Assembly (NCBI GenBank): GCA_964344415.1
Contig: CAYFMS010000001.1
Span: 383,315 to 430,502, forward strand
DNA length: 47,188 nt
Source of the DNA: an uncultured Gammaproteobacteria bacterium
GTDB taxonomy: Bacteria > Patescibacteriota > Patescibacteriia > UBA9934
Reading direction: 5' to 3'
The position numbers and the translations under genes were made by a program. Under the pieces are notes generated by a model, which made no database searches, was not told where the DNA came from, and saw nothing but the letters and a program-made list of their open reading frames with translations. This document shows positions 5,232 to 29,943 of this stretch, one piece after another (position 1 is the first letter of the stretch; the number at the start of each line of letters is the position of its first letter).

Positions 5232-5912
5232 CTAGATTTCGCGCAGGAATGAGAAGGTTTGACCCTTGTCATCCCATGCGCCCGAATTTTCCATGATTTC
5301 GTGCATGGCATTGCCGGTCTCGGCATCGGTCCACTGAATCATGGTTCTCACGGTCGCGAGGTCGCCGTTGTCGTCTGGGATCATGTTCTCGGTCAGTTCT
5401 GGACTGACATCGATCACGATTTCTCCTTCTTCGTGGGTGTCCACGAAGAGATTGACGTCCTCAACGATGAATACGACGAGCTCTTCGTCATGCAGTTCAC
5501 CGTCTGATGTTACGACGGTGACTAGGCCGCGCTCCTCTCGATCGATCCAGTCAGCGTCGATCGTGATGAGCATATTGTCGACGAAGTACCCTTCGCCACA
5601 GCCGCGCTCGGCCGTGAACAGAAGGGACTGCTCGGCGCCGTCCTCGCGCGCGAAGAAGTCGGACTGAATTGTCCGTGCAATCGGTTGCGAGGTGGTTTCA
5701 TACGGCCCGTCGATCCAGTTGAACTGGAAGGGGTCGCATCCGTCATCCGCATCCTGATCGACATCCGGATCCCCGCGTGGGGATTCGAAAATGATCATGG
5801 GCGGCTGATTGCCTGCATCCGGATCTTCCACATACACATAAACCGTTTCCGGTTCGGGAATGCGGCACCCGGTCGCGACGATGAGCATCGCGAAGAAAAA
5901 TCGAAAGAACAT
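5232..5912 (-). CDS. GC-rich cassette 1: acidic lipoprotein of unknown function
   Basis: 226 aa. The signal peptide with lipobox is MFFRFFFAMLIVATG|C. SD AGGAGA lies 4 nt before ATG(5912). The sampled 60-nt line 5581 is 41/60 G+C against an AT-rich backbone. The product is very D/E-rich. Confidence 0.75.
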   Translation of the reverse strand: MFFRFFFAMLIVATGCRIPEPETVYVYVEDPDAGNQPPMIIFESPRGDPDVDQDADDGCDPFQFNWIDGPYETTSQPIARTIQSDFFAREDGAEQSLLFTAERGCGEGYFVDNMLITIDADWIDREERGLVTVVTSDGELHDEELVVFIVEDVNLFVDTHEEGEIVIDVSPELTENMIPDDNGDLATVRTMIQWTDAETGNAMHEIMENSGAWDDKGQTFSFLREI

Positions 5913-7451: not shown

Positions 7452-9587
7452 TCACTCCAACAAATGACTCGCTGTAAATGAATGTAGGCTTTGATCTGTA
7501 ATGAAGAAAATCGTTTTTGTTTCTTCATCGACGTATATATCATGTGCAGAGCCTAATTGTTCATGGCTATACTGCCTAACAAAGTCACCCGTTTTTGTGA
7601 AGACAAGAATACGATTATTGTCTGACTCAAGAACATAAAGATAATTCGATTCTGTATTCGTGAACAGCCTTGTCATATTCGATGGCAGAGGATCGACAAT
7701 ATCAAGATTGAAATCAACCTCTCTTCCAGAACTGAATTTGGCTATTCCTTTTGGCAGAAGAATGTATATATCACCGTCAATTGCTATATCTCTACCTTCA
7801 GATATATCGGTTTCTCTTGCGCTAATCCATGGCGTTCCCGCATCAAATCCGTCGCCTTGTGGCTGCATCTTTGTTATTTGCTGTGATGTTGTAGAAAATG
7901 CATACAAATTATCAACATAGCTCTCAATACCTCCAAGAGAACTCAGTCGATTCACGCCGCTAATAATCGGATTTACGCTTCCTGTTTGCGCATTAAATCT
8001 TCCAAGCTGTGAATTGTCGTCGATGATATATGTACTCGTTTCATCGTTTGCTACATGTGTAGGGCTGCCGATGCTGCCAATCACGGCATCGATTTGAGAC
8101 CAAGAATTATTCACGCTGTCGTACAGATAATAAAGGTTTGAATTCGACACACCGTATATCGACGAATCAAGATGAGCTAGGAATGCAAGCTCTGATCCAT
8201 TTTCCGCGAGTGTTTGAAGGGCGATATGTTCAATTCCTTGCAATGACTGCAATAATTCATTCAATTCAATCTTTAAATCCTCAACAGTCTGCTGCTCGCT
8301 CTTTGGAATGGCGACAGTGTCGAGGAGTGCCAATGCTTCTGCAATCAGCTGCCTCGCGCCTTCTTTATCTTCATAAATAAGATTTGCAGATGCCGAATCT
8401 CGTTTATCTTCTACTGTTTTTACAATAGAATTAAATGTTTCAATTTCTGAACGATGTTTTCTTGATTTTGTGAAGGCCTGCGTAAGAATAAATCCGCTCA
8501 AAATAACAAGGAGAGCGACGGATGTTACGATCTTTGTTCTATTCGAAATAGATGAAGCGGACTCTTTTGCTCGTGAAAATACTGATGCCATGCCCGCCTT
8601 TATGTCTCGATTCTCACGATTCTTTATAAGGTGCTTTATCCCGTTTATGGTGAGCTTGGTTAATGCGCGTATGCCAGACCAAAGAGCGGCAAGTGCAATA
8701 ATGAGTACTTTTATGATGAAGCGAATAAACTGAACAATCATGCTCTTTGTCCCTTTATTACCCGGACCTGAAATGCGATCGAGAAGTGGATTTACAATCG
8801 TTTGCATGAATGTATTCAGATTCATTTTTTGATCCCCAAGTAAGTCTGCTGTTTGTTCTTTTGTTTGCGTGAGCTGCTGTATGGATGAAAGCGGATTTAC
8901 TTTTTTTATGCCCTCATGAGATTTGCGCTGCGTCATTTTAAACAGAACGGCCCCATAAGACTCCTGCGTGCCGCGATACTGGCCAATGCGCTGTAATGCT
9001 CCCGAAGGGGGGAGTGTGACGAGAATATGCTGCAATTCATCTTGGCTTAATTCACGATTTGGAATGGCTGTTGCAACATAAAAAATATCCCCAGGATTTA
9101 ATTCGCCATCCAGAATAGTTAAAAACAGCTTATGCCAATCTGTATTGGCTTCATGGTCAAATTGTTCATTCAATTCATAAACGGTGAAGCGCGATTGTGC
9201 GGATTTATGCATGAAATGTGCGAGTAGTTCACCCACGCCGCTTACATAAACTTGATTGTCAGAAATGACACCAATAATGGCATTCATATCAGTAATCGGA
9301 ATCGGCCTTACGTCATTTGCAATTTCATTAAGCTGCTCATTTAATGTCTGAAGGAGTTGCTCGAAGCGTCTGGCCATATTCATGTCTTCTCCAGCGTTCA
9401 AAGCAAATCGTTCAATATGTTCATTGATGGTGATGGCTATTTGCTCTCGTGACTTGTTTTTACGGCCAATTATTTTATACAATCCAAAAATCTTGCCTCG
9501 ATTTCCAGGCAGGTCATAAAGGAGCGCTTGCATGATAGGCGCTTTTTCTCTTGGTAATGCTGTAATTTTGGCGGATTTGTAATCCAT
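7452..9587 (-). CDS. Hypothetical 711-aa membrane protein: N-terminal cytoplasmic domain, central TM segments, C-terminal beta-propeller-like repeats
   Basis: Long ORF at backbone GC. TM stretches are FIIKVLIIALAALWSGI and IVTSVALLVILSGFILT. The C-terminal half has repeated blades (..LYYLYDS.., ..TYIIDDNSQLGRF.., ..IYILLPKGIAKF.., ..YLYVLESDNNRILVF.., ..IFFITDQSLHSF). I recognise no catalytic motif. Confidence 0.7.
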   Translation of the reverse strand: MDYKSAKITALPREKAPIMQALLYDLPGNRGKIFGLYKIIGRKNKSREQIAITINEHIERFALNAGEDMNMARRFEQLLQTLNEQLNEIANDVRPIPITDMNAIIGVISDNQVYVSGVGELLAHFMHKSAQSRFTVYELNEQFDHEANTDWHKLFLTILDGELNPGDIFYVATAIPNRELSQDELQHILVTLPPSGALQRIGQYRGTQESYGAVLFKMTQRKSHEGIKKVNPLSSIQQLTQTKEQTADLLGDQKMNLNTFMQTIVNPLLDRISGPGNKGTKSMIVQFIRFIIKVLIIALAALWSGIRALTKLTINGIKHLIKNRENRDIKAGMASVFSRAKESASSISNRTKIVTSVALLVILSGFILTQAFTKSRKHRSEIETFNSIVKTVEDKRDSASANLIYEDKEGARQLIAEALALLDTVAIPKSEQQTVEDLKIELNELLQSLQGIEHIALQTLAENGSELAFLAHLDSSIYGVSNSNLYYLYDSVNNSWSQIDAVIGSIGSPTHVANDETSTYIIDDNSQLGRFNAQTGSVNPIISGVNRLSSLGGIESYVDNLYAFSTTSQQITKMQPQGDGFDAGTPWISARETDISEGRDIAIDGDIYILLPKGIAKFSSGREVDFNLDIVDPLPSNMTRLFTNTESNYLYVLESDNNRILVFTKTGDFVRQYSHEQLGSAHDIYVDEETKTIFFITDQSLHSFTASHLLE

Positions 9588-9674
9588 GTTTTATGTCAAA
9601 GCTTTACGAATATCGACTTAGGATTTACTATAAGTATATACGAACTTGCAAAGTAGCCAAGTGCAAGTACCTCA

Positions 9675-10370
9675 ATGAACAAAATTCGTATTCGTATGCC
9701 AAAGAAAAAGATTCAAGAAGTTAAGGAGGGTAATACTGATACACGCGTGCAGTCAGAGCAATCGATTGAGCAATTGTTTGGGTCTAAAACCCGTGTGCGC
9801 ATGCTCAGGCTTTTTCTGGATAATCCAGATCGAGCTTTTTATGTTCGTGAGCTGACTCGGCGCATTGATGCTCAGCTTAATTCCGTTCGTCGAGAGTTGA
9901 ATAACTTGATTGGGATTGGAATCCTGAAAGAAACAAAAGGGGTCATTCTGAAAGAAGAGGATAAGGGTAAGAAGGGAAAATCTACAAAGAAAAAATTCTA
10001 TCAAGCGAATAGTGAGTTTGCATTTTTCGAAGAACTGCGTGGCATCATGAAAAAGTCTGCCGTGCTTATGAATAGGGGGTTTGTTGAGGAAATTACGAAG
10101 AAGGGAAATATTCATTTGCTCTTTTTGACGGGAACATTCATTGATAATCCGGGTACGGAATCTGACATGCTGGTTGTTGGTGATATTAAGCCAGATGATT
10201 TGCGTAAAGCGGTAGAAAAATTTGAAAAAGAAATTGGTCGTGAGATTAATTATACGAGCATGCCAAAAGATGAACTCGTATATCGAATGGAGGTAAAGGA
10301 TAGATTCCTGCAGTCTCTTTTGAAAACGGATAAGGTAATATTGATTAACGATTTGGACCTTGATATATGA
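9675..10370 (+). CDS. Winged-helix (ArsR-like) DNA-binding protein with C-terminal alpha/beta domain
   Basis: The wHTH signature is FGSKTRVRMLRLFLDNPDRAFYVRELTRRIDAQLNSVRRELNNLIGIGILKE. It overlaps the next gene by 4 nt (ATGA). Confidence 0.7.
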   Translation: MNKIRIRMPKKKIQEVKEGNTDTRVQSEQSIEQLFGSKTRVRMLRLFLDNPDRAFYVRELTRRIDAQLNSVRRELNNLIGIGILKETKGVILKEEDKGKKGKSTKKKFYQANSEFAFFEELRGIMKKSAVLMNRGFVEEITKKGNIHLLFLTGTFIDNPGTESDMLVVGDIKPDDLRKAVEKFEKEIGREINYTSMPKDELVYRMEVKDRFLQSLLKTDKVILINDLDLDI

Positions 10371-10775: not shown

Positions 10776-11480
10776 ATGGAACATTACGTAGACCTTCTTC
10801 AAAGTGCTTTTATTGATATGTGGACGGCAATATTGCTCTTTCTGCCACAATTTTTGCTAGCACTTATTATTATATTGCTTGGTTTTTTGCTTGCAGGGAT
10901 TTTAAAAGCAGCAATCGAGCGTGTATCTGCACTTGTAAAATTAGATCAATTAATGGATGTTCTTGAAGTTAAGGCGGCATTCAAAAAAGCGAATATAGAC
11001 TTACATATCGGAGGATTCCTTGGGTGGCTTGCAAAATGGTTCATTTTGATACTTGCTCTCATTATTGCAGCCGATACGCTTGGATGGGATCAAATAACGG
11101 TATTTCTTTCTGAGGTTGTTTCTTATATTCCAAATGTCATTATTGCTGTTGTTATTCTCTTGGTTGGTATTGTACTTGGTTCATTTGTTCAGGGGATTAT
11201 TAAAAGTACATTGGATGCTTCCGGATTGCAGACAAGTGCTTTTCTATCCGGAATAGCTAAATGGTCTATTGTTGTATTTAGTTTTATGGCTGCACTTGTG
11301 CAGCTTGGTATTGCCGAGTCGCTTATTCAGGTGCTCTTCACTGGTTTTGTTGCGATGGTTGCACTTGCTGGTGGATTGGCATTTGGACTGGGTGGTAAGG
11401 AATTCGCGGCAGAGATCCTGAAAAAGATTAAAAAAGATTTGGTGAAGGGGGAGGGGGCAGGAAGCGGCAAGGAAAGTTAG
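10776..11480 (+). CDS. Membrane protein with two 'conserved TM helix' (MscS-N-terminal-like) repeats
   Basis: Two similar modules are FLPQFLLALIIILLGFLLAGILKAAIERV and YIPNVIIAVVILLVGIVLGSFVQGIIKST. The last codons and the stop codon lie inside a dispersed repeat module (see findings). Confidence 0.75.
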   Translation: MEHYVDLLQSAFIDMWTAILLFLPQFLLALIIILLGFLLAGILKAAIERVSALVKLDQLMDVLEVKAAFKKANIDLHIGGFLGWLAKWFILILALIIAADTLGWDQITVFLSEVVSYIPNVIIAVVILLVGIVLGSFVQGIIKSTLDASGLQTSAFLSGIAKWSIVVFSFMAALVQLGIAESLIQVLFTGFVAMVALAGGLAFGLGGKEFAAEILKKIKKDLVKGEGAGSGKES

Positions 11481-14749: not shown

Positions 14750-14917
14750 TTTGGCCAATGTGAATCATTAGTTTGATTTGATGAGATAAAAACAGCAGTC
14801 GTTTTTAGCTGCTATGTTAATGAACGTCGCTTTACTTTGGTTGATTATTTGTTACACTATGCATACAAACCGGATCCCAAGGGTGCCCAGTAAGGCACTT
14901 GGTCCGGGTATTTGTGT

Positions 14918-16930
14918 ATGAATTTCAAACTCAAATCAAAATATAGTCCAGCGGGAGATCAACCAAAGGCGATCGAGCAGTTAACCGATGGCATAAAAAT
15001 AGGTCTTGAAAAACAGACCCTTCTTGGTGTTACCGGTTCAGGAAAGACATTCACGGTTGCAAATGTGATTCAGAATGTTCAAAAACCAACACTCGTTATT
15101 GCGCATAATAAAACGCTTGCGGCGCAGCTCACGAATGAGTTCAGGGAATTTTTTCCAGATAATGCCGTTGAGTATTTTGTTTCTTATTATGATTATTATC
15201 AGCCAGAGGCCTATATGCCGCGGAGCGACACATATATCGAGAAAGAAGCTCAGATTAATGAGGAAATTGACCGTCTAAGGCATAGCGCTACGCAAGCTCT
15301 ATTAACGCGTAAGGATGTAATTGTTGTGGCTTCTGTTTCCTGTATTTATGGACTTGGCTCACCGAAGGAATATGCGAATGTGATTCTCCACATGGAAAAA
15401 GGTCAGGATGTGAATCGTGCTGATTTTATTCGTCAGCTCATTGAAATGTATTTTGAACGCACGAATGCTGATCTTGACCGCGGAAAATTCCGCGTAAAAG
15501 GTGATGTATTTGAAATCATGCCGATGAATGATCGTGCTTCTATTATTCGCATGGTGATTGAGAATGAAAAAGTTCATGACATTTTTCTACTTGATCCAAT
15601 TACGCGCAAAATTCAGGATACAAGTGAGGATTTTTGGCTTTTCCCGGCGAAGCATTATGTCGTTGGTTCTGATCAAGTTGACCGCGCGCTTGCAAGCATC
15701 GAATCAGAACTCACTGATCGCTTGGCAGTTCTTGAAAAAGAAGGTCGAGTTCTTGAATATGAACGATTGAAACGACGGACACGTTATGACATCGAAATGA
15801 TCCGCAATATTGGATATACGAATGGAATCGAGAATTATTCAAGGCATTTCGAGGGAAGAAAGGCCGGCGATCCCGCGGAAACGCTTCTGTCATATTTTCC
15901 AGAAGATTTTCTGACGGTTATTGATGAATCGCATGTAACGGTGCCGCAGATTCGAGCGATGTATGCTGGTGATCAGGCTCGAAAAGAAACACTTGTTGAT
16001 CATGGATTCAGACTTCCGTCGGCCAAGGATAATCGACCTCTTCAATTTGATGAATTCGAAAAGAGAACAGGGCAGACTATTTATGTAACGGCAACACCGG
16101 GTCCATATGAGCAAGAAGAAACAGATGCGACGGTTGAACAAATTGTACGACCAACTGGGCTTGTAGATCCAAAAACAACGATTCTGCCTGTAACGGGGTC
16201 AGAAGATTATCCAGGACAGGTCGATGATTTAATCGAAAGAATTAAGGATCGAGTCGATGGCGATGAAAGGACATTGGTGACAACGCTTACCAAGAAAATG
16301 GCAGAAGATCTTACAGGATATCTTGAAGACATTGGCATCAAGGTTCAGTATTTACATAGCGGTGTAGACACTTTGGACCGCATAGAAACGCTCACGAAAT
16401 TGAGGCAGGGGGAATATGATGTTGTTGTTGGTGTGAATTTGCTGCGTGAAGGACTTGATTTACCAGAGGTTTCGCTTGTTGCCATTTTAGATGCAGATAA
16501 GGAAGGATTTCTGCGCTCTACGACATCCCTCGTCCAGACCATTGGTAGGGCGGCACGTAATGTAAATGGTGAAGTTATTTTATACGCCGATCATATGACA
16601 GGCTCGCTCGAACGTGCACTTGAGGAAACGGATAGGCGTCGGAAAATTCAGCTTGAATATAATAAAAAGCACGGCATTACGCCGCAAACCATTCAAAAAG
16701 AGATTAAAGATATTCGCGAAATGATTGAATCGGGTGATAGGGAGGAGGAAATAAAAAATGTGCTCAATATTGAATTGTCGGCCGAGCCCGATGAAATTCG
16801 CAAGGTGATCAAGGAAAAGGAAAGGGAAATGAAGCTTGCAGCAGCGGACCTTCTTTTTGAAACAGCGGCACTTCTAAGGGATGAAATTGATGTATTGAAA
16901 AAGGAACTTGATATGAAAGAGAAAAAATAA
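14918..16930 (+). CDS. uvrB: Excinuclease ABC subunit B
   Basis: PAGDQPKAIEQL, GVTGSGKTF, YYDYYQPEAY and DESHVT, plus the C-terminal UVR motif AAADLLFETAALLRDEI. ATG at 14918 (the track starts at TTG 14912). Confidence 0.97.
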   Translation: MNFKLKSKYSPAGDQPKAIEQLTDGIKIGLEKQTLLGVTGSGKTFTVANVIQNVQKPTLVIAHNKTLAAQLTNEFREFFPDNAVEYFVSYYDYYQPEAYMPRSDTYIEKEAQINEEIDRLRHSATQALLTRKDVIVVASVSCIYGLGSPKEYANVILHMEKGQDVNRADFIRQLIEMYFERTNADLDRGKFRVKGDVFEIMPMNDRASIIRMVIENEKVHDIFLLDPITRKIQDTSEDFWLFPAKHYVVGSDQVDRALASIESELTDRLAVLEKEGRVLEYERLKRRTRYDIEMIRNIGYTNGIENYSRHFEGRKAGDPAETLLSYFPEDFLTVIDESHVTVPQIRAMYAGDQARKETLVDHGFRLPSAKDNRPLQFDEFEKRTGQTIYVTATPGPYEQEETDATVEQIVRPTGLVDPKTTILPVTGSEDYPGQVDDLIERIKDRVDGDERTLVTTLTKKMAEDLTGYLEDIGIKVQYLHSGVDTLDRIETLTKLRQGEYDVVVGVNLLREGLDLPEVSLVAILDADKEGFLRSTTSLVQTIGRAARNVNGEVILYADHMTGSLERALEETDRRRKIQLEYNKKHGITPQTIQKEIKDIREMIESGDREEEIKNVLNIELSAEPDEIRKVIKEKEREMKLAAADLLFETAALLRDEIDVLKKELDMKEKK

Positions 16931-17433
16931 TGGCCGCCAGCACCGCCACTCTGTGGTCTCGCTGGACGGCCCGTATATGTGCTGGTTGTCAATTGAAGCT
17001 TCGCTGTAATCTACGGTTACACGCCTGAGGTTGGCAAGGGTTTTCGACGCACATGGACAAAGCCCATGGCACGAGGTACCTTCTGCGGCGTATAGCGAAC
17101 AGATTACGAGTACGAAAGCTGCAGCATTCTTGATTGCTCGTCAAGAATAGATCTGCGGCTTCCGACGCAAACGAGGCTTTCTCCACGACGCAAACGGGTT
17201 TGACATTCCCGGATGCTGGAACGGGCGGCGACGGGGAGTCCGAGACATCTCTGACCAATTGGCCGAAGGCATCTGGATCTGACGTTGGAGTTCGCCAGTT
17301 GGACACTCCCGAGGAATGTTATCCCCGACGGAGCTTACCCCACCCGCTCCCAAGTGGAACACGAATGATCTCTCCTTCTATTATCAGTGCAGAAGTGCAC
17401 AGATAAAAACATCATAAAAAACACATAAAAAAT

Positions 17434-19944
17434 ATGCAAGAACACATTGTTATTAAAGGGGCTAAGGAACATAATCTGAAAAATGTTGATTTGAAGCTCC
17501 CGCGGAATAAATTGATCTGTTTCACAGGTCTTTCTGGAAGTGGAAAATCTTCTCTGGCTTTTGATACGATTTTCGCCGAAGGTCAACGGCGCTACATTGA
17601 ATCACTTTCTGCTTATGCTCGGCAATTCCTTGGACAAATGCAAAAACCAGATGTCGATGAAATCGAGGGTCTTTCACCGGCTATCTCAATTGACCAGAAG
17701 GCGCATTCGCGCAATCCTCGATCAACGGTCGCGACCGTGACGGAGATTTATGATTACCTTCGTGTTCTTTTTGCTCGTATTGGTGTTCCTCATTGTCCTG
17801 AAACGGGAGTGCTACTTGAGAAGCTGACCATCGATGAAATGGTGGATATTGTTCTTGCTGATAACAAAAACGCGCATAAAGCGAAAGGAGGTGTTCAAAT
17901 TCTCGCACGCGTTATTGATGGGCGAAAGGGTGAGTATTATCAATTGCTGTATGACTTGTATAATTCTGGATTCGCCAAGGTTCGGATTGATGGGGTCGAG
18001 CATCGACTGAATGAGAAGATTAAATTATCGCGCTATAAAAAGCATACGATTGATGTGGTTGTTGACACGATTCCGTCTACTGCGCTGCTTGATCCAAGCA
18101 AGGATGACCGTCAGCGATTATCGGAGGCGCTTGAAAAAGCGCTTGATGTTGGGAATCAAGTTGCATTTGCATTGTTTTCAGATATGTCAGAACGTCGACT
18201 TTCCGCAACGTTGACTTCGCCGGCAACAGGGAAGTCTTTTCCGGAAATTGAACCGCGTCTCTTTTCATTCAATAGCCCTTATGGTGCATGTCCAGCTTGT
18301 AATGGTTTGGGTGTGAAAGAGTTGTTTTCTTCAGATATTTGTGAAGTTTGTGACGGGGCTCGGTTGCGACCTGAATCATTGTCTGTGAAAATCTCTGGTG
18401 TCAATATTGTTGATTTGACGAATATGACCGTCGAACGAGCGCATGAATTCATTGAAGAAGTCGAACTCGATGAGCGGACGCAAGAAATTGCGGGAACGGT
18501 CCTCGCAGAGATTTCGAATCGATTGCGTTTTATGCTCGATGTTGGTTTGCATTATTTAACATTGAATCGAAAGGCTGGGACATTGTCTGGCGGTGAAGCT
18601 CAGCGCATTCGTCTTGCATCGCAGATCGGATCTCGACTTGTTGGCGCGCTGTATGTTCTTGATGAACCGACTATTGGACTGCATCAACGTGATAATGAAA
18701 AGCTCATTAAGACGCTCGAGGATTTACGTGATATTGGAAATACGGTTTTGGTTGTTGAGCATGATGAAGATATGATTCGTCGCAGTGATTTTATGGTTGA
18801 AATTGGGCCTGCTGCCGGGGCTCACGGCGGCGAAATTATTGCAGCAGGAACAACGCCAGACATTTTCAAGGATAAAAAATCAAATACGGCTGCATATTTG
18901 CGCGGTGAAAAACAGATAGAAATTCCAAAGGAGCGTCGTCGTCCGGGCAAGGATAGCCTGAAAATCAAGGGGGCAAAGGAAAATAATCTGAAAAATATTG
19001 ATGTCGAAATTCCGCTGCGTCGGTTCACGTGCGTAACAGGTGTTTCTGGAAGTGGAAAGTCTACGCTTATTTTTGACATTCTTTATAAGGCTATTGCGAA
19101 GAAATTACATCATGCAAAGCATCAGCCGGGTGAGCATAAAGCGGTTCTGGGACTCGAATATATCGATAAAGTCATTTTGATGGATCAGTCGGCGATTGGT
19201 CGATCATCGAGAAGTAATCCGGCGACATATACGGGTGCTTGGGGTCCAATTCGTGAATTATTCGCTGCGACAGAAGAGGCTCGGTTCCGTGGATATAAAC
19301 CGGGACGTTTCAGTTTTAATGTTCCGGGCGGGCGTTGTGATAATTGCGATGGTCATGGTGAAAATGCTATTGAAATGCATTTCTTGCCGACGGTATATGT
19401 GACATGTGATATTTGCCACGGGAAACGTTTTAATCGAGAGACGCTTGAGGTTGAATGGAATGGGAAAAATATTTGGCAAATCCTTGATATGACAGTCGAG
19501 GAGGCTGCGGAATTTTTCAAAGATATTCCAAATATCAATTCGAAAGTTAAAACATTGAATGAAGTCGGACTCGGGTATTTGAAATTGGGTCAGTCAGCGA
19601 CGACATTGTCTGGTGGTGAGGCGCAGCGTGTGAAATTGGCATCCGAGCTTTCAAAGCGGTCAACGGGGCGAACGCTCTATTTGCTCGATGAGCCGACGAC
19701 GGGTTTGCATTTCGATGATATAAAACAGCTTTTGGGAGTTCTACAGAAATTGGTGGACAAGGGGAATTCGATTATTGTGATTGAGCATAATTTGGATGTC
19801 ATCAAAACGGCAGATTGGATTATTGATTTGGGTCCCGAGGGCGGTGAGGGTGGTGGAACGATTGTTGCTGAGGGGACGCCGGAAGAAATTATCCGTACAC
19901 GCGCAAGTCATACGGGGAAGTATTTGAGACCGTATTTGGATTAG
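17434..19944 (+). CDS. uvrA: Excinuclease ABC subunit A, short form lacking the insertion domain
   Basis: Two ABC modules are present ([42 protein letters not shown]). At 836 aa, only 8 residues separate CPACNGLGV from CEVCDGARL, where E. coli UvrA has about 115. Confidence 0.97.
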
Positions 19945-20019
19945 GGGATAGGGTGTAGGGGGTAGGGTTGCCGTTACAGATTTACAGATGGTACGGATAT
20001 ACGGGATCCATCGCCAAGC

Positions 20020-20044
20020 GTCATTCCGGCCTCCGAGCCGGAAT
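20020..20044 (+). repeat. Dispersed hairpin module GTCATTCCGG...
   Basis: GTCATTCCGGC-ctccga-GCCGGAATC. The 10-mer GTCATTCCGG recurs as its reverse complement at 7372-7381. Confidence 0.6.
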
Positions 20045-20102
20045 CCAGTGGAGTAGAACATGGCACGTATACAAAAATTGGTCCGTACGGACGAAAAAGT
20101 GT

Positions 20103-20152
20103 CAAAGAAAAATCCCCGCCTCACGTAGCCGTTGTGGCTTTGTGAAGCGGGG
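20103..20152 (-). terminator. Intrinsic terminator of GC-rich cassette 2a
   Basis: Minus strand reads CCCCGCTTCAC-16-nt loop-GTGAGGCGGGG (11 bp including one G-U) followed by ATTTTTCTTTG. Confidence 0.65.
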
Positions 20153-20169
20153 TCGATCCTGCGTGAGGC

Positions 20170-21138
20170 CTAGGGCGTCGCGCAGGTTTCGAATTGTACG
20201 TTCTGGAACTCGGCGCACATGGCGCCTTCCAGTTCGGCGACCCTGTCGAACAGGGACATGCCACCCCAGCTTGCGCCGAGATGGTAGCCGTAGTCCGACG
20301 TGATTTGACCCAGGATCATCTCCTGGACGCCCATCACGCCGACCCAGTCGGTCCCCTCGATGCCGTGAAGATCGTTCTCGAGCTCGTTCACCGAGCTCTC
20401 GATTCCACGTTCGATGCACCATTGCTCGTTCACGACATTTCCGTGCACGAGGCATGGGATGTCGTTCTCGACGCGAGTGATCCTCACATCGAGATCGAAG
20501 GTGTCGACGGACTGGTCGAGCACCGAAATCCGGTTGGTTTCGATCTTGTCCTGCAGCGACCAGAGGTCGGTGCCGGGATCGACGTGGAGCTCGTACCCGC
20601 TTGCGAGCGTACTTGCGTCGCTCGCTGCGATCGAACTCGACGGTGTACGCATCCGCGCGACCGTCGTGTTGAGCGCATTTGCGTTCGCTTCGAGGTCCCA
20701 GATGTCGACGCTCTGGTCGAGCGTTGCGATCCGGTTGGTTTCGACCTGCGCTTCGAGTTCCCAAACGCGCGCCTCGAGCTGACCAACCTCACCTTGGAGG
20801 ATGTTGATCGTGCTCTGTCGGGCCGGGCCCATCGACGTCTGTACGGTGGTGAAGACCTGGCGTTCCAGCTCCTCAATCCGCCCCTTGGCGACTACCAATG
20901 CAGCGCGATGCTGCATGACGGTGGTCTCGAGGCCACGCGCATACATTGTGAGCGATTCGAAATCACTCACGAGTGCGTCGTGGCGGCAGTCCCGCCACAC
21001 ATCGGTCCCTGCGGTCAAATGACCGCATTGGTCACCGCCCGCGTGTGCGGCAGTGGAACACATCGCCGCGCCGCAAAGCAGTACGACGATCACGATTCCG
21101 GCCATGCGGGCCAGGAGTCGGGTTGGGTAAATGGGCAT
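20170..21138 (-). CDS. GC-rich cassette 2a: exported Cys-loop / coiled-coil repeat protein, unknown function
   Basis: GGAGG lies 4 nt before ATG 21138. The signal peptide is MPIYPTRLLARMAGIVIVVLLCGAAMCSTAAHA. A C-x12-C loop (CGHLTAGTDVWRDC) is followed by heptad-like sequence with a 67-codon internal duplication (ETNRIATLDQSVDIWDLE / ETNRISVLDQSVDTFDLD). Sampled lines are 53-63% G+C. Confidence 0.7.
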   Translation of the reverse strand: MPIYPTRLLARMAGIVIVVLLCGAAMCSTAAHAGGDQCGHLTAGTDVWRDCRHDALVSDFESLTMYARGLETTVMQHRAALVVAKGRIEELERQVFTTVQTSMGPARQSTINILQGEVGQLEARVWELEAQVETNRIATLDQSVDIWDLEANANALNTTVARMRTPSSSIAASDASTLASGYELHVDPGTDLWSLQDKIETNRISVLDQSVDTFDLDVRITRVENDIPCLVHGNVVNEQWCIERGIESSVNELENDLHGIEGTDWVGVMGVQEMILGQITSDYGYHLGASWGGMSLFDRVAELEGAMCAEFQNVQFETCATP

Positions 21139-21200
21139 GTATCCTCCGAATGGCATTTTCAGCCAAAGTGCACGGAAATCTTGATGAAATCCGAGGGAAT

Positions 21201-21229
21201 AATGTACCAAAAAATAGCTCTTTTGTCAA
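21201..21229 (-). promoter_or_regulatory. Extended -10 promoter of cassette 2a
   Basis: Minus strand reads TTGACA-AAAGAGCTATTTTT-TG-G-TACATT. Confidence 0.55.
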
Positions 21230-21293
21230 GGTAAAATGCTATTTTTTTAGCCAAAACAAGCCAAAATAATTAAGTCCGACTTAAATTCTGAAA

Positions 21294-21333
21294 ATAAAAA
21301 TCCGCCCGTCACACTGTTGGCGATCGGGGCGGG
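21294..21333 (-). terminator. Intrinsic terminator of GC-rich cassette 2b
   Basis: Minus strand reads CCGCCC-loop-GGGCGG followed by ATTTTTATTTT. Confidence 0.6.
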
Positions 21334-21353
21334 TTGTCGTAGTTGTGTCTTGG

Positions 21354-22118
21354 CTAGGGTTCCGCGATCAGGGTCGGATACGTATACGGATCCTGACCAG
21401 AACTGGACCTCACGAGATCCGTACTGATCGTCTGAAACAATCCATCCTTAGCAATTCCTCCGTTTTTGAAGTTGCTCGAGGTGTAGATGTACTGCGTTTG
21501 GAAGTTCGCAGGAGTTGCCAACGTAGTTACGAAATCGCCGATCACAGCAACATCCATCGAATGGTTCTCCATGCCCGTGAAAACGCTGCCGGTAGCGGTA
21601 AGGACGAAGTCCCTGTCACCAGATCCATTCAGGAGCCCGACATCGAGCGGACCCATGCTCAGCGCGGCTGGATCGCCGACATCCGTCAAACGGACCAGGC
21701 GGACATTCACGAGATAGACATCGTATAGCGGGTCGACGGTGTCATTGATCGTGATCGGGAATCCGTGGAAAAAGGTCAGATCTTCGGTCCAGATCCTGCC
21801 CGTCCAGAGGACGATGTCATTCTCTGCTCCCGCATGCGGTTTAACCACAGATTTCTCATATCCCTCCAATTTCGTGGAGGTGATGTCGATTACATGATGT
21901 GGATCGACCTGCTGCGCATACAAATCGTCGACGTCCGCTTCGAGAGCGTCAACGCGATCTTGCAGTAGTGAACCGCTCGAGAGAAGGAAGAGAATTTGGC
22001 AATTCTGCCAGTCCTCACCTCCGCTCGTGTGCTGATCGCAGGGGGCCGCTTCCGCATAAGATGCGGGGATGATGAGCGCGGCGACGATCGCTACGAAGAG
22101 AAGAATAAGTTGCTTCAT
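21354..22118 (-). CDS. GC-rich cassette 2b: exported Cys-loop / coiled-coil protein with C-terminal beta-rich domain, paralogous N-terminus to 2a
   Basis: Start preferred at ATG 22118, giving MKQLILLFVAIVAALIIPASYAEA (signal peptide). The C-x12-C loop CDQHTSGGEDWQNC has the same spacing and the same T, G, D/E, W and D/N positions as in 2a. Confidence 0.7.
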   Translation of the reverse strand: MKQLILLFVAIVAALIIPASYAEAAPCDQHTSGGEDWQNCQILFLLSSGSLLQDRVDALEADVDDLYAQQVDPHHVIDITSTKLEGYEKSVVKPHAGAENDIVLWTGRIWTEDLTFFHGFPITINDTVDPLYDVYLVNVRLVRLTDVGDPAALSMGPLDVGLLNGSGDRDFVLTATGSVFTGMENHSMDVAVIGDFVTTLATPANFQTQYIYTSSNFKNGGIAKDGLFQTISTDLVRSSSGQDPYTYPTLIAEP

Positions 22119-22167
22119 TGCTTTTTCCTTTGAAGGATGTTGAACCTGCATGACCACAGGTGGCAGG

Positions 22168-22196
22168 AGAGTATCAGCTTTTACAACAAATGTCAA
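22168..22196 (-). promoter_or_regulatory. Extended -10 promoter of cassette 2b
   Basis: Minus strand reads TTGACA-TTTGTTGTAAAAGC-TG-A-TACTCT. Confidence 0.5.
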
Positions 22197-22253: not shown

Positions 22254-23585
22254 ATGGCAATTCCAGCTGAAATCAAGATAAAAAACAATGAACTTCCAGA
22301 TAATCCTGGGGTGTATTTTTATTATGACGAAAAGGGTGAGCTATTATATATCGGTAAGGCAACCTCACTTAAAAAGCGGGTGGGTTCATATTTTACAAAG
22401 GCGCATAATGGTCGCATTGCGGAATTGGTATCGCATATCGCGTGCATAGATTATATTGGAACGCCAACCGTGATCGAGGCCTTGGTTTTGGAAGCGAATC
22501 AGATCAAGGCAAAAAAACCGAAATACAATATTTTGCTTCGCGACGATAAGAGTTTTAATTATTTATGCATTACAAATGAAGATTTCCCGAAGCCATTTAT
22601 ACTCAGAGGGCATGATTTGGAGCGTATCGGAATCAATCCATTTGATAAAGAACTTTCAGATAAAGCTGCGGCGAGGTTCTTAGCTGTATTTGGTCCATTC
22701 ACATCGGGCTTGTCTTTGAAGAGATCGCTTGAGTATATTCGGAAAATCATTCCATGGACGACATGTGACAATCCAAAAATAACAGGACGAACACGCCCAT
22801 GCTTTGACCGTCAGATTCGAAAATGTCCAGGTGTTTGTACTGGTGAAATATCGAAGGCGGAGTATCGTAAAATTATTCGCGATCTTATTTTATTTTTCCG
22901 TGGTGAGAAAATGCAGCTCATCAAACGACTGAAGAAACAAATGAATACAGCGGCTAAGAATCAGGAATTTGAATTGGCGGCGAGCTTGCGTAATAAAATA
23001 TTTGCACTCGAGCATATAAAAGATGTGGCACTTATTACGAGAGAAGATTTTGAATTACCCGTTGAAAAAATAAAAGACCCATCGAGTATTGATTTGGATG
23101 GCCGGATTGAGGCATTTGATATTAGTAATATTTCAGGCACCTCTTCCGTGGCTTCAATGGTAGTTTTTGAAGAGGGAAGGCCGGCTAAATCGAAATATAG
23201 GAAATTTAAGATTAAGACGGTTGATGGACCAAATGATGTTGCGTCAATGCAGGAAGTAATGCGTCGTCGATTGCGTCGGGCGCAGCTTTACCCGAATGCA
23301 TGGCCGCTGCCGGAATTATTTGTCATTGATGGTGGTAAGCCACAGGTTGCGGCGGTATATGATGTGCTTCATGAAATGCAGGTAAATGTGTCTGTGCTTG
23401 GAATAGCAAAGGGTCCAGATAGAAAGAAAGATGAACTCATTTTTGACCGTGGCGACATACGTTTGCGAGACGTGGCGCTGCGCGGTAAGGGGATTTTTCA
23501 GCATGCTCGTGATGAAGCACATCGCTTCGCCGTTAAATATCATCGGCAATTACGATCGAGGAATTCTGGCATTAAAAGAAAATAG
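22254..23585 (+). CDS. uvrC: Excinuclease ABC subunit C, minimal form (GIY-YIG + UVR + RNase H-like endonuclease; no central domain, no C-terminal HhH2)
   Basis: PGVYFYYDEKGELLYIGKATSLKKRV (GIY-YIG), EFELAASLRNKIFALE (UVR), IEAFDISNISGTSSVASMVVF and ARDEAHRFAVKYHR. The protein ends about 15 aa after that motif; 443 aa versus about 600 for typical UvrC. Confidence 0.93.
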   Translation: MAIPAEIKIKNNELPDNPGVYFYYDEKGELLYIGKATSLKKRVGSYFTKAHNGRIAELVSHIACIDYIGTPTVIEALVLEANQIKAKKPKYNILLRDDKSFNYLCITNEDFPKPFILRGHDLERIGINPFDKELSDKAAARFLAVFGPFTSGLSLKRSLEYIRKIIPWTTCDNPKITGRTRPCFDRQIRKCPGVCTGEISKAEYRKIIRDLILFFRGEKMQLIKRLKKQMNTAAKNQEFELAASLRNKIFALEHIKDVALITREDFELPVEKIKDPSSIDLDGRIEAFDISNISGTSSVASMVVFEEGRPAKSKYRKFKIKTVDGPNDVASMQEVMRRRLRRAQLYPNAWPLPELFVIDGGKPQVAAVYDVLHEMQVNVSVLGIAKGPDRKKDELIFDRGDIRLRDVALRGKGIFQHARDEAHRFAVKYHRQLRSRNSGIKRK

Positions 23586-23824: not shown

Positions 23825-24256
23825 GTGTTCATAGGCGAGTATCACCATCAAATTGACGAAAAGGGACGCATGTCGATCCCTACGAAGTTTCGTTTAGACC
23901 TAGCGAAAGGAGCGGTTGTGACGCGAGGGCTCGATACTTCACTGTTCCTGCTTCCTTTGGAGGAGTGGGGTAAGCTTGCGAATAAACTTGCAGGCTTGCC
24001 CTTGGGACAGGCAAACTCGCGTGCATTCGCCAGGCTCATGCTTGCTGGCGCAATGGACGTTCAACCTGATAAGCAGGGACGGTTCGTTATCCCAGAGTAT
24101 CTGCGTCGATACGCAGGACTTCAAAAAAAGGTGGTGATTGTTGGTGTGTCTACACGTCTTGAAATCTGGGATGAACAAGCTTGGGAGACATATCGAAAAC
24201 AAACCGAGGAGGATGCAAGTGATATTGCTGAGCAGCTTGGGGAACTAGGCATCTAA
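23825..24256 (+). CDS. mraZ: Transcriptional regulator MraZ
   Basis: MFIGEYHHQIDEKGRMSIPTKFR and a second KQGRFVIPEYLR SpoVT/AbrB-like repeat. GTG start. Confidence 0.93.
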   Translation: MFIGEYHHQIDEKGRMSIPTKFRLDLAKGAVVTRGLDTSLFLLPLEEWGKLANKLAGLPLGQANSRAFARLMLAGAMDVQPDKQGRFVIPEYLRRYAGLQKKVVIVGVSTRLEIWDEQAWETYRKQTEEDASDIAEQLGELGI

Positions 24257-27238: not shown

Positions 27239-27348
27239 TCCACAATCAAAGTCGGACATGAAATGTGGATAAGTTTACGAAACTGACTGATAATTGGTTG
27301 TTTTTTAATTTTCATCCACAGATAAAGTCCGACATTGTCTGTGGATAG
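27236..27348. promoter_or_regulatory. Cluster of four DnaA-box-like 9-mers with an AT-rich stretch, in a convergent intergenic region
   Basis: TAATCCACA (27236-27244), TGTGGATAA (27264-27272, perfect), TCATCCACA (27312-27320) and TGTGGATAG (27340-27348). The AT-rich GATAATTGGTTGTTTTTTAATTTTC lies between them. Confidence 0.5.
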
Positions 27349-27360
27349 ATTTTAGGTAAG

Positions 27361-27422: not shown

Positions 27423-28940
27423 TTAGTTGTCGTAGCTGACGACGATCGCAGCACGATTGTTGTCCCAGTCGGTGGGGTATCCGTCGTCGTCGTAGTCGGT
27501 GAACGACTGTCCGTCGTAGGATTCCGACTCGGCGGTTCCGAGGTTGGTTTCCACGTTGACGTCCCAGATACCGAACAGTTCTTCCTCGACTTCGATGTCG
27601 ATGAAGTCACTGTTGCCATTCTCGTCGACGATGTGATGAGCTTGACCGTTGTCATCGGTAGCAAATCCATTGAACCAGAATTCGTCGTCGATGTCTCCGC
27701 TCAGGGTGACCTCGACGATGTCTCCGGATTCCAGATTCGTCATGTTGACGAGGAAAACCTCGTCGTTCGAGATGACGCCATCAGCTGCCAGCTGTCCACG
27801 CCCGTACCAATAGTTGATTTCGGGCGAGTCGGTCCGGTCGGACCGGGCCCCGAACAGCTCCAGCTTGTCGAGGTCTTCCTCGATCTCGATGGTGAAGGTG
27901 ATCTGGGTCAAGTGATCGCAGGCGCCGGACTCATCGACTTTGTCGTCGCAGTCGTTGTCGTTGCCGTCACAGAACTCGTCTTCGTTGGGGTTGACGTAGA
28001 ACTCGTCGTCGTCGCAGTCGAGATCGTCGCCGTCCTCGTAGTCGACTTCGTCGGTCTGGCATTCCTCGCGGAGGGTGCCGTCGTCGTCCTCATCACCGAA
28101 CCCGTCTGCATCATCGTCGTCGATGCACAGGTACAGGCACGACTCTTGATCTGCATCGTCTTCTCCGCTGCAGTCGTTGTCGATGTTGTCGTCGCAGTTG
28201 CCCTCGTCGATCTCTTCGATCTCGGCGGGGCTGACGTCATCATCATCGTCATCGCAGTCGGTGTTGTCCTCGACTTCGTCTGCTTCGCATTCGGAGCGTT
28301 GGATGGCAGCTTCGCCATCATCTCCGAACCCGTCGCCGTCGAAATCGGGATAGCAGTTGACCATGGTCACGTCGCCGCAGTTCTCGAAGACGTCGAAGTC
28401 TTCGTCATCGCAGTCGGTATTGTTCCAGCTCCCTTCGATGAGAGTGCAGGTGAGCTCGCTGACCGCGAGTCCAGAATCATTCGAATCGCCATACCCATCG
28501 CCATCAGTGTCTCTGAAGCAGAGGGTGTAGCAGATGTTCTGGACGTCAAACTCTTCGTCATTGCAGTCGGAGTTGTTCAGGCTGTGCCAGCCGTCACTCA
28601 CCAGTGCATCGCAGTCGTCGCTCGGAATCTCGATCCCTGGATCGAGCGGATCACCGAATCCATCGCCGTCGCTGTCGATGTAGCACATGACATCTTCCAC
28701 AACGCTGCAGTTCTCGAAGACATAGAAGTCTTCGTCATCGCAGTCGGTGTTGTTCAGGCTGTACGTACCAGCGTCCACCAGTACGTCACAGTCGTCGCTT
28801 GGAATCTCGATGCCTGGATCGAGCGGGTCACCATAGGTATCGCCGTCGCCGTCGATGTAGCACATGACGTCGGGATTGCTCTGACCACCTCCGAAGAAGT
28901 AGATCCAGAGCATGAACAGGAATTGTTTGAATGCGGTCAT
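27423..28940 (-). CDS. GC-rich cassette 3: exported protein with five Cys/Asp-rich 'putative metal-binding motif' (MopE-like) repeats, poly-acidic linker and C-terminal beta-rich domain
   Basis: GGAGG lies 4 nt before ATG 28940 (MTAFKQFLFMLWIYFFGGG). Repeats have the form C(Y/F).D.DGDG(Y/F)GD.......C......(W/Y)...N.DCDD.D..V; the first two are near-identical. A later motif is CDGNDNDCDDKVDE. Asp is almost always GAC. Sampled line 27961 is 34/60 G+C. Confidence 0.75.
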   Translation of the reverse strand: MTAFKQFLFMLWIYFFGGGQSNPDVMCYIDGDGDTYGDPLDPGIEIPSDDCDVLVDAGTYSLNNTDCDDEDFYVFENCSVVEDVMCYIDSDGDGFGDPLDPGIEIPSDDCDALVSDGWHSLNNSDCNDEEFDVQNICYTLCFRDTDGDGYGDSNDSGLAVSELTCTLIEGSWNNTDCDDEDFDVFENCGDVTMVNCYPDFDGDGFGDDGEAAIQRSECEADEVEDNTDCDDDDDDVSPAEIEEIDEGNCDDNIDNDCSGEDDADQESCLYLCIDDDDADGFGDEDDDGTLREECQTDEVDYEDGDDLDCDDDEFYVNPNEDEFCDGNDNDCDDKVDESGACDHLTQITFTIEIEEDLDKLELFGARSDRTDSPEINYWYGRGQLAADGVISNDEVFLVNMTNLESGDIVEVTLSGDIDDEFWFNGFATDDNGQAHHIVDENGNSDFIDIEVEEELFGIWDVNVETNLGTAESESYDGQSFTDYDDDGYPTDWDNNRAAIVVSYDN

Positions 28941-29019
28941 GCCGCCTCCATTGTCTCGTGTTGAAAATGTACGTAAACACCCGTTAGACGGGAGTCCACG
29001 AAATAACTCGTGGTCGCAA

Positions 29020-29048
29020 AAAGTAGCACAAAATGCCTCATTTGTCAA
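29020..29048 (-). promoter_or_regulatory. Extended -10 promoter of cassette 3
   Basis: Minus strand reads TTGACA-AATGAGGCATTTTG-TG-C-TACTTT. Confidence 0.55.
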
Positions 29049-29109
29049 TGCTGAGACTGGAAAAAATGATCATTATGATATAGTTCAGACAACCTTTTTT
29101 TGGAAAAAT

Positions 29110-29943
29110 ATGAAGAAAATGCAAGAAATTGGCCAAGATAAGCCACATTCTAAGGTTATCACAACTTTGGTGGTGATTATCCTATTCTTACTTATAGGAA
29201 TAATAGTGCTACTTTCATTGCTATTTTGGAATGATGTGACAGATTTCGCTGATCAGATTCCAGAGGATGAAATTTCAACTGAAATGACCGATGATTCACA
29301 AGATGAAGATGTCCTAGATATTGAAGAAAATGACGAATCATCTGAAATAAGTGCATTACCATATCTCGAAAACACATCACGAAATATCGATTTTTCCTTT
29401 GAATCGACGTATTTGAATCAAATTCGTAATACGAATACCTATCCATATTGCCAGAAAATTGCTGGACATGATGGTGTTCCAGTGTCCGAACTGAATGAAG
29501 AAATTATTTCTCAAATGCTCCCAGAATTAGATCCTACGAATCTGACGGCAGTCACGCACCAGATTTTTACGATTCTTGATGCGAATAATCTAAATATCCA
29601 TCAAAAATGCCAGGGAACTGGATGGCAGATTCTAACGGCAGGAAATATAAATACGGGGCAATTGATGCTTATGCAAATCAATTCAGATGCTTTGACTCCA
29701 GGACAATTTCAATTGAATCAATTTGAAACGGTATCAAATGTGATTGATATGACATATGACATTATTGATTTCGGAGACTTTGTAGGGCTTTGGCATGGAT
29801 ATGGCGATGCTGGAATTGTTAGCTGGGAGGTGCGTCGTATTGATTTTGAATCTATGACACTTGATTTATATGAGTCATGTCAAGCCGAGGCATTTATGGA
29901 TCCGGGTCAGTTGACATGTGAACGGGAATATATTTCAGGGTAA
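29110..29943 (+). CDS. Hypothetical membrane-anchored protein
   Basis: Start preferred at ATG 29110 (MKKMQEIGQ...). The ORF-track upstream extension overlaps the cassette-3 promoter and start. TM VITTLVVIILFLLIGIIVLLSLLFW, then an acidic linker and a globular domain with no motif I recognise. Confidence 0.65.
   Translation: MKKMQEIGQDKPHSKVITTLVVIILFLLIGIIVLLSLLFWNDVTDFADQIPEDEISTEMTDDSQDEDVLDIEENDESSEISALPYLENTSRNIDFSFESTYLNQIRNTNTYPYCQKIAGHDGVPVSELNEEIISQMLPELDPTNLTAVTHQIFTILDANNLNIHQKCQGTGWQILTAGNINTGQLMLMQINSDALTPGQFQLNQFETVSNVIDMTYDIIDFGDFVGLWHGYGDAGIVSWEVRRIDFESMTLDLYESCQAEAFMDPGQLTCEREYISG

Follow-up and report, generated by a model that had tools for sequence, protein, structure and literature searches.

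Two GC-rich orphan genes encoding putatively exported proteins with a shared cysteine loop between uvrA and uvrC of an uncultured bacterium

In a 47,188-nucleotide stretch of DNA from an uncultured bacterium (contig CAYFMS010000001.1, positions 383,315 to 430,502; hereafter the window), which comes from a metagenome contig of 768,188 bp, the genes uvrB (14912-16930), uvrA (17434-19944) and uvrC (22254-23585) lie on the plus strand, as does the majority of the genes in this DNA of about 43% GC, and all three score above the NCBIfam equivalog cut-offs. The interval between uvrA and uvrC holds two minus-strand open reading frames (ORFs), named here A and B, which an initial annotation had described as GC-rich exported paralogues with a disulfide loop and a coiled-coil stalk, inserted between the two uvr genes. 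The question raised by this locus is whether A and B are genuine genes, how far they are related to each other and what kind of proteins they could encode.

Genes A and B and their transcription signals

The two genes and the signals proposed for their transcription are the following:

20170..21138, minus strand: coding sequence (CDS) of gene A (P0001), 322 amino acids, start MPIYPT with GGAGGA upstream, without family match
21354..22118, minus strand: CDS of gene B (P0003), 254 amino acids, start MKQLIL with AAAGGAAAAA upstream, without credible relative
21229-21201, minus strand: promoter of A, TTGACA-17-TACATT with an extended -10 TG, 94% identical over 35 nt at the related locus
22196-22168, minus strand: promoter of B, TTGACA-17-TACTCT with TG
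20104..20154, minus strand: terminator of A, two-tier hairpin of -30.5 kcal/mol (z -6.3) followed by a U run, with the same shape in the orthologue
21291..21332, minus strand: terminator of B, hairpin of -15.9 kcal/mol (z -2.7) followed by a U run, with a tail 81% like that of the A terminator

A near-consensus promoter and a terminator hairpin were found for each gene, in agreement with the independent promotion and termination proposed initially. Judged from the sequence, both are genuine genes, each transcribed on its own. The longer, TTG-started ORFs called mechanically extend into the own promoters of A and B; the end given to the pair in the initial annotation (22196) is the TTG of one of these mechanical ORFs, located inside the -35 box of B, and its start (20103) is the end of the terminator of A. 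The segment uvrA-A-B-uvrC was also present in a second sample with 99.9% identity, with 4 differences and none of them within A or B, and since the segment recurs there an assembly chimera is excluded. A protein identical to A was called in another sample.

Word-indexed searches of 5.8 billion proteins, carried out with A and with a profile of A plus P0002, have revealed exactly one relative of A, seen as a frameshifted copy (P0002) and as an intact protein of 251 amino acids (P0005). The intact form was seen without any difference in five contigs from several samples; in a sixth contig (L001) the only differences are two gaps that shift the reading frame, which gives the frameshifted copy P0002. 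A hypervariability or diversity-generating mechanism was considered and rejected, because neither A nor B varied between the two samples and the orthologue was identical in the five contigs.

The possibility that the plus-strand ORF opposite to A (20194-21234) is the better coding frame had been raised initially and was answered by the related locus L003, in which tblastn recovered the orthologue of A in the sense frame with 88.6 bits (E 1e-22), versus 37 bits for the antisense frame. The antisense frame is not open in the relative, where it is broken into ORFs of 95-116 amino acids. In the sense frame of A, the GC contents at the third, first and second codon positions follow the order GC3 > GC1 > GC2 (0.77, 0.63 and 0.43), and this order fails in the antisense frame.

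The common N-terminal cysteine loop

The N-terminal features of both proteins, with the signal-like regions read from the sequence, are listed below:

21040..21138, minus strand: A residues 1-33, signal-peptide-like N-terminus with two Arg, a 16-residue hydrophobic core and an AHA/GG site
22053..22118, minus strand: B residues 1-22, signal-peptide-like N-terminus with MK, a 15-residue hydrophobic core and an SYA/EA site
20986..21027, minus strand: Cys loop of A, CGHLTAGTDVWRDC, C38-C51, kept as CGHLTHGTNNWQVC in the orthologue after the same AHA/GG site
21999..22040, minus strand: Cys loop of B, CDQHTSGGEDWQNC, C27-C40, a low-confidence beta-hairpin in the model with strands 28-32 and 35-39

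By inspection, an n-h-c organisation with small residues at -3/-1 is present in A, its orthologue and B, the n-region of A and B being basic, and the AHA/GG site of A is kept in the orthologue. The initial description of both products as proteins with putative signal peptides holds. A lipobox is absent, and A-x-A sites are present in its place: the Cys residues in the hydrophobic region of A are preceded by VLL and AAM, and the first Cys of B (C27) is preceded by EAAP.

Both loops begin four residues past the predicted cleavage site, and the shared C-x12-C module proposed for the two proteins is indeed found in each of them. These loops are the sole matches to the pattern C-x3-T-x-G-x3-W-x2-C in the six frames of the window, and no further copies were detected when the scan was extended along the contig past both window ends (L059 and L061). 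A 22-position profile made from A and the orthologue placed B at the top of the 397 ORFs of the window (E 0.03; next best 1.6), and with the orthologue as query B was the second-best ORF of the window (E 5e-4). Comparison of B with the N-terminus of the orthologue by tblastn, in loci of 9-12 kb, gave E values of 7e-5 and 1e-4. With the signal peptides removed, B and the orthologue aligned with a score of 60, versus 22 +/- 4.3 in shuffled sequences (0 of 5000 shuffles reached the score), and the score of B with A was reached by 11 of 5000 shuffles. An hhalign comparison covered 31 columns with an E value of 2.7e-4 and a probability of 42%, and a 29-nt stretch of B that encodes RVDALEADV is 76% identical to the stretch of A that encodes RVWELEAQV. 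Beyond about 40 mature residues, no significant similarity between A and B was found. The similarity of the loops is above chance, moderately and only locally (about 30-40 residues), with the remainder of A and B unrelated; the two proteins may be called paralogues for at most about 40 N-terminal residues, and the term does not apply to the rest.

These comparisons also bear on the explanation that A and B are non-functional ORFs that arose in GC-rich DNA and resemble each other by chance, which is considered highly improbable. The GC-rich DNA yields long ORFs in several frames here, B is without any relative and the motif was defined post hoc from two sequences; however, the orthologue keeps the loop, the signal peptide, the promoter and the terminator shape, the sense frame stands well above the antisense frame and has the codon-position order mentioned above, the shuffle tests back the N-terminal similarity, and each gene has a near-consensus promoter, a Shine-Dalgarno sequence and a terminator.

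The reading that we favour, tentatively, is that A and B are Sec-exported, disulfide-stabilised and fast-evolving accessory proteins that share an N-terminal hairpin-plus-helix module. The mature proteins would start with a 14-residue disulfide-closed loop, C-x3-T-x-G-x-[DEN]-x-W-x2-C, which probably forms a beta-hairpin and would be followed directly by a helical segment. In A, a long helical part would be broken by H-x3-G-T-D-x-W turns and by ETNRI..LDQSVD..DL repeats, with two more Cys pairs located C-terminally, and in B a short helix would lead to a beta-rich part of about 180 residues. The hairpin and first helix, as the common module, may cap the protein, nucleate an oligomer or dock, and the specific function, exerted outside the cytoplasm in a surface structure or in binding, for example, would reside in the divergent C-terminal parts. 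The common role is placed at the N-terminal end because only the first 40 or so mature residues are common to the unrelated neighbours and the orthologue. The rapid divergence is shown for A by an identity of 32% with the orthologue, versus 55-89% for MraZ, iPGM, RsmH and the FtsL-like protein of the same genome pair, and the accessory character is proposed because B is absent from the related locus and the GC3 of both genes is far from that of host genes, ribosomal ones included. The genes, their transcription signals, the motif with its conservation in the orthologue and the rapid divergence are shown by the data, whereas export, disulfide formation, an oligomeric coiled coil, the location of the proteins and any docking or adhesive role are what we infer from these genes, and should be taken as predictions.

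Several results weigh against this reading. The structural models, with a predicted local distance difference test (pLDDT) of 34 for B and 42 for A, have a confidence too low for their folds to be compared or for globular C-terminal heads to be recognised. Instead of the long coiled-coil stalk suggested initially, only short heptad segments and a low-confidence helix in A stand out, the number of Cys residues in the mature orthologue is odd, and no cell-surface anchor (lipobox, LPXTG or C-terminal transmembrane segment) was found in A or B. The loop family consists of three sequences only, which makes its conservation statistics thin, and the strict loop pattern gave, in metagenome and viral collections, no further copy preceded by a signal peptide that would point to a general module. 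In the metagenome collection the strict DNA pattern matched 48 stretches, most of them out of frame and none a post-signal loop, although this collection evidently lacks the window's own contig and absence from it is weak evidence; in viral contigs (IMG/VR) there were two raw matches.

The family represented by A and B is new and very narrow, although its kind, that of orphan and putatively exported proteins of an uncultured bacterium, is familiar. Well-delimited orphan genes such as this pair are common in such genomes. If A and B were exported and acted at the surface or in contact with a host, they would be candidate means by which an uncultured bacterium with a small genome interacts with its environment, and the hairpin common to both could be used to search for their partner.

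The remainder of proteins A and B

The features described in the rest of both proteins are the following:

20671..21003, minus strand: A residues 46-156, long helix predicted by AlphaFold2, with a pLDDT of 45-71 by 10-residue block
20685..20747, minus strand: internal repeat of A, copy 1, QVETNRIATLDQSVDIWDLE, a 63-nt direct repeat in a block with 87% DNA identity in the relative
20484..20546, minus strand: internal repeat of A, copy 2, KIETNRISVLDQSVDTFDLD, a 63-nt direct repeat
21903..22004, minus strand: B residues 39-72, short heptad-like helix LLQDRVDALEADVDDLYAQ, from the model and the heptad score

The AlphaFold2 model of A, obtained from a two-sequence alignment (mean pLDDT 42), shows shorter helices after the one at 46-156. 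A crude, home-made heptad score was best at residues 106-136 of A and lower at 143-176, and its maximum was reached by 1 of 300 shuffles. Heptad segments above the shuffles are about 30 residues long, and correspond to the two mentioned segments of A, to residues 39-72 of B and to residues 87-128 of the orthologue. The two internal repeat copies of A are 78% identical, are spaced by 201 nt and encode ETNRI(A/S)xLDQSVDxxDL twice. The turn motif of the loop recurs in A without cysteines, as HVDPGTDLW (185-193) and EGTDW (260-264); H-x3-G-T-D-x-W is found at residues 40-48 and 185-193, and GTDW at 261-264. The six Cys residues of mature A form three local pairs with x12 (C38-C51), x11 (C229-C241) and x10 (C308-C319) spacing, and A therefore fits an oxidised extracytoplasmic protein. 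The C-terminus of A (...FQNVQFETCATP) has neither an LPXTG motif nor a hydrophobic tail, and the same applies to that of B (...YTYPTLIAEP). The AlphaFold2 model of B was made from a single sequence (pLDDT 34) and contains a hairpin in the loop, a helix at 53-67 and strands after it.

Pfam, NCBIfam, PHROGs and PADLOC gave no usable match to A, B or the orthologue, with nothing in PADLOC at E <= 1, and PDB sequences yielded only prefoldin for A, at E 0.5, and nothing for B, in line with the initial statement that no known family was recognised in the pair. The best Pfam matches of A were the coiled-coil regions DUF7518 and DUF7310, which align to residues 91-160 with E values of 0.0056 and 0.023; however, their scores of 17.8 and 15.6 bits are far below the gathering cut-offs of 27 and 40, only the helical part of A is covered and B is unmatched, and these matches probably reflect coiled-coil composition. 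In PHROGs, the sole match of A was one of the coiled-coil type to a minor head protein, with 22 bits, and B had none below E 0.07. Concerning C1q/TNF profiles, no Pfam match at E <= 1 was obtained for B, and A gave only sub-threshold matches of the coiled-coil type. No YadA-type anchor or head, neck or stalk domain of trimeric autotransporter adhesins was found in Pfam or NCBIfam, and a spanin pair has neither an endolysin or holin nearby nor a lipobox to point to it.

The word-indexed search of 5.8 billion proteins with B returned only B itself. An exhaustive phmmer search against 1.84 billion representatives gave one match, P0004, a 679-amino-acid repeat protein (E 2.5e-9) that is itself weakly matched by a PHROG tail-fibre family. 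Each of the best three repeats of P0004, which measure about 48 residues, shares 40-45% identity with one stretch of 42 residues in B (IVLWTGRIWTEDLTFFHGFPITINDT...), but no single stretch is significant library-wide. P0004 was rejected as a homologue of B because its E value is a sum over about six near-identical repeats, with the best single stretch at 18.4 bits (E 110 library-wide).

The resemblance to described systems is limited to their general plan. The architecture had initially been likened to fibre-like or adhesin-like receptor-binding proteins, a reading that is not supported here: the sequences gave no link to tail fibres, C1q/TNF or adhesins, and a phage context is lacking. In A, heptad-like helices alternate with Gly-containing turns and sequence blocks are repeated, as is generally known for the fibritin of phage T4; unlike fibritin, A shows no similarity to phage proteins, has a putative signal peptide and disulfide loops, and is without a foldon-like C-terminus or a phage context. 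A short shared N-terminus joined to an unrelated remainder, rapid divergence and putative export are also reminiscent of S-layer proteins with SLH domains, phage tail fibres and M-like proteins, but A and B have no SLH, LPXTG, YSIRK, lipobox or tail-fibre N-terminal domain, and their shared module, of only about 40 residues, is known from no described family.

The signal peptides without any anchor motif would suit released soluble effectors, such as toxins, bacteriocins or host-interaction factors, rather than surface structures, as would disulfide loops adequate for extracellular stability, the rapid divergence and patchy distribution, and the strong promoters. This alternative is nonetheless regarded as unlikely: no toxin, immunity or defence family was matched, no immunity-like small membrane protein or dedicated transporter is adjacent, and helical repeats are more usual in structural proteins.

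The related locus, the composition of the genes and their surroundings

The neighbourhood of A and B includes uvrB, uvrA, uvrC, mraZ, rsmH, an ftsL-like gene and iPGM; MraZ (23825-24256) was identified by NCBIfam and the FtsL-like protein by a sub-threshold match only. In the relative, the orthologue of A lies directly upstream of the genes mraZ-rsmH-ftsL-iPGM and divergent from mraZ, and in the window A is within 3 kb of mraZ. The genes uvrA, uvrB, uvrC and B are absent from this related locus of 11.8 kb. The identity between the two organisms was 89% for MraZ, 76% for iPGM, 62% for RsmH, 55% for the FtsL-like protein and 32% for A, which differs from its orthologue by domain-scale insertions and deletions, with a whole repeat unit gained or lost. 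Where A is syntenic, the DNA of the relative is only about 70% identical.

Because the orthologue adjoins mraZ, its promoter is 94% conserved and uvrA, uvrC and B are absent there, A looks like an old resident of the region beside the division and cell wall (dcw) cluster, with uvrA, uvrC and B varying around it. The initial statement that the pair was inserted between uvrA and uvrC is in consequence doubtful, since the sole relative has the A orthologue beside mraZ, at a locus without these three genes. Loss in the relative or gain in the lineage of the window may account for the difference, as one relative fits either.

The same arrangement bears on the explanation that A is an envelope or division accessory, an extracytoplasmic coiled coil like EnvC or FtsB/DivIC kept by mraZ-rsmH-ftsL, with B as an unrelated neighbour. 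The position of A and its orthologue with respect to mraZ, the N-terminal hydrophobic segment followed by a helical part, and the retention of A at a locus that lacks uvrA and uvrC are consistent with it, but A has no LytM or other division domain and no family match, evolves far faster than the FtsL-like protein (32% versus 55%) with repeat gain or loss, and has its own promoter, a divergent orientation and an atypical codon usage unlike core division genes, in a cluster where an FtsL-like gene is already present. Such an envelope or division role is judged to be quite unlikely.

A small minus-strand ORF (17141-17362) was observed in the 504-nt gap between uvrB and uvrA, with AAGGAG upstream and a counterpart in L052 (11098-11313) that immediately follows the A orthologue and is read from the same strand. 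It encodes 73 amino acids in the window and 71 in L052, with 73% protein and 80% DNA identity, a conservation above that of RsmH and of the FtsL-like protein; synonymous changes account for many of the differences, an in-frame 3-nt insertion or deletion is present, and no Rfam or NCBIfam match was obtained. The contigs L001, L003 and L052, from three independent assemblies, end at the same base, about 1 kb past the A orthologue, which suggests a repeat or a coverage break there.

A palindrome was also found upstream of A:

21271..21283, no strand assigned: 13-bp palindrome TAAGTCCGACTTA, about 42 bp upstream of the -35 box of A, a single exact copy in the window

Six copies of this palindrome flank the A orthologue in L052, a number reached by 0 of 200 shuffles. 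As TAAGTCSGACTTA, they are arranged there around the orthologue in three pairs with 25-bp spacing (9552-9589, 9775-9812 and 10863-10900). Each pair can fold into a 16-bp hairpin of -22 kcal/mol (z -7), and two of the pairs are direct repeats of about 45 bp that flank the orthologue. The palindrome could be an operator, an element of the repetitive extragenic palindromic (REP) type or a cassette boundary. No convincing att-like direct repeats were found around A and B in the window.

Gene A has a GC content of 0.61 and a GC3 of 0.77, and gene B values of 0.54 and 0.64, versus a GC3 of 0.36-0.39 in the neighbouring genes. Three other orphan genes share this composition, so that GC3 is 0.60-0.77 in these five genes and 0.31-0.47 in all other genes of the window. 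The three genes are the following:

5232-5912, minus strand: GC3-rich orphan encoding an acidic protein with a lipoprotein-like N-terminus
27423-28943, minus strand: GC3-rich orphan encoding 506 amino acids, 31% of them Asp+Glu, with many repeats of the C-x-D-x-D-G-D-G-x-G-D type
45300-46901, plus strand: GC3-rich orphan within the mentioned range of 0.60-0.77

The protein encoded by 27423-28943 had a sub-threshold match to Pfam Cu-binding_MopE (22.9 bits versus 27), and its N-terminal region overlaps a mechanical ORF of the opposite strand (28912-29943), the true start of which is probably near 29110. The GC3 rise is due mainly to C-ending codons, with G at four-fold sites unchanged, and the GC-richness ends at the CDS ends, the upstream regions having 34-39% GC. 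All five orphans have a TTGACA -35 box upstream, and in four of them the complete extended -10 consensus is present as well. A resemblance to the rplU promoter is seen in those of A, the MopE-motif gene and 45300 (TTGACAAA, T-rich spacer, TGnTAnnnT), while the promoter of B has the same -35 box and TG.

Two explanations of this composition were tried. Optimal codons of a highly expressed gene were rejected, since ribosomal protein genes of the same contig have a GC3 of 0.34 (rplU), 0.33 (rplL) and 0.42 (rplJ). A freshly inserted GC-rich fragment is weakened as an explanation by the AT-rich flanks, the host-type promoters and the bias kept in the orthologue, which has a GC3 of 0.66 in a genome with 0.34-0.36. 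Neither recent transfer nor translational selection thus accounts for the high GC3, and if the phenomenon were general, a GC3-richness confined to coding sequences would need a mechanism beyond recent transfer or codon optimisation. This class of genes is a more curious lead than the A/B pair itself.

The atypical GC3, together with the presence of B in one lineage and its absence from the other and the hairpin direct repeats of about 45 bp flanking the orthologue, might also be expected if A and B were prophage or mobile-element remnants encoding tail-fibre-like receptor-binding proteins, with a conserved attachment end and swappable C-terminal heads. A conserved N-terminus with a variable C-terminus follows the logic of tail fibres, and the only database match of B, P0004, has its weak PHROG link to them. 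Nevertheless this origin is improbable: the P0004 match is an artefact of summing over repeats, no PHROGs tail-fibre match was found for A or B, tblastn against 50,697 phage genomes and the search of IMG/VR gave no match for either protein, and no integrase, tail or baseplate genes are near A and B. Tail fibres do not usually carry signal peptides, the high GC content is limited to the CDS and adjoins host-type promoters, and A is syntenic in a relative with only about 70% DNA identity.

In a more speculative and clearly doubtful extension of the reading as exported accessory proteins, the hairpin and first helix would be a lineage-specific docking or sorting tag for interchangeable exported proteins, and A and B would belong to an undescribed accessory class of single-gene units with C3- and GC3-rich coding sequences. 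These units would have host-type consensus promoters, would be bounded by hairpin repeats in the relative, and would keep their odd composition across deep divergence.

A second type of hairpin repeat, TCCACA..(A/C)(T/G)GTCSGACTTT..TGTGGA, was observed in intergenic DNA. Two sites are located in the window between iPGM and the MopE-motif gene (27249-27275 and 27325-27350), and one is near SHMT in L059 (about 4135-4165); the core GTCSGACTT is common to this repeat and the 13-bp palindrome.

The neighbouring UvrA and UvrC proteins are shorter than their models. UvrA has 836 amino acids versus 943 model positions, and its residue 296 aligns to model position 402, which corresponds to about 100 residues missing from the N-terminal half. 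UvrC has 443 amino acids versus 574-652 positions; its alignments skip about 100 model positions after the N-terminal part and before the endonuclease domain, and the last 55 or so positions are unmatched. The spacer from the uvrA stop to the A terminator (19945-20103) has 52% GC and contains the hairpin ATTCCGGC-CTCCGA-GCCGGAAT; a short GCGATGGATCCCG stretch of this spacer recurs at the end of the related contigs (tail of L052). The first ORF of the window (41-4354, plus strand) continues in L061 (11559-18695) and is part of a signal-peptide-bearing protein of 2,378 amino acids with LTD, Big_5 and CarboxypepD_reg domains, which adjoins rplL and rplJ and has a normal codon usage (GC3 0.36).

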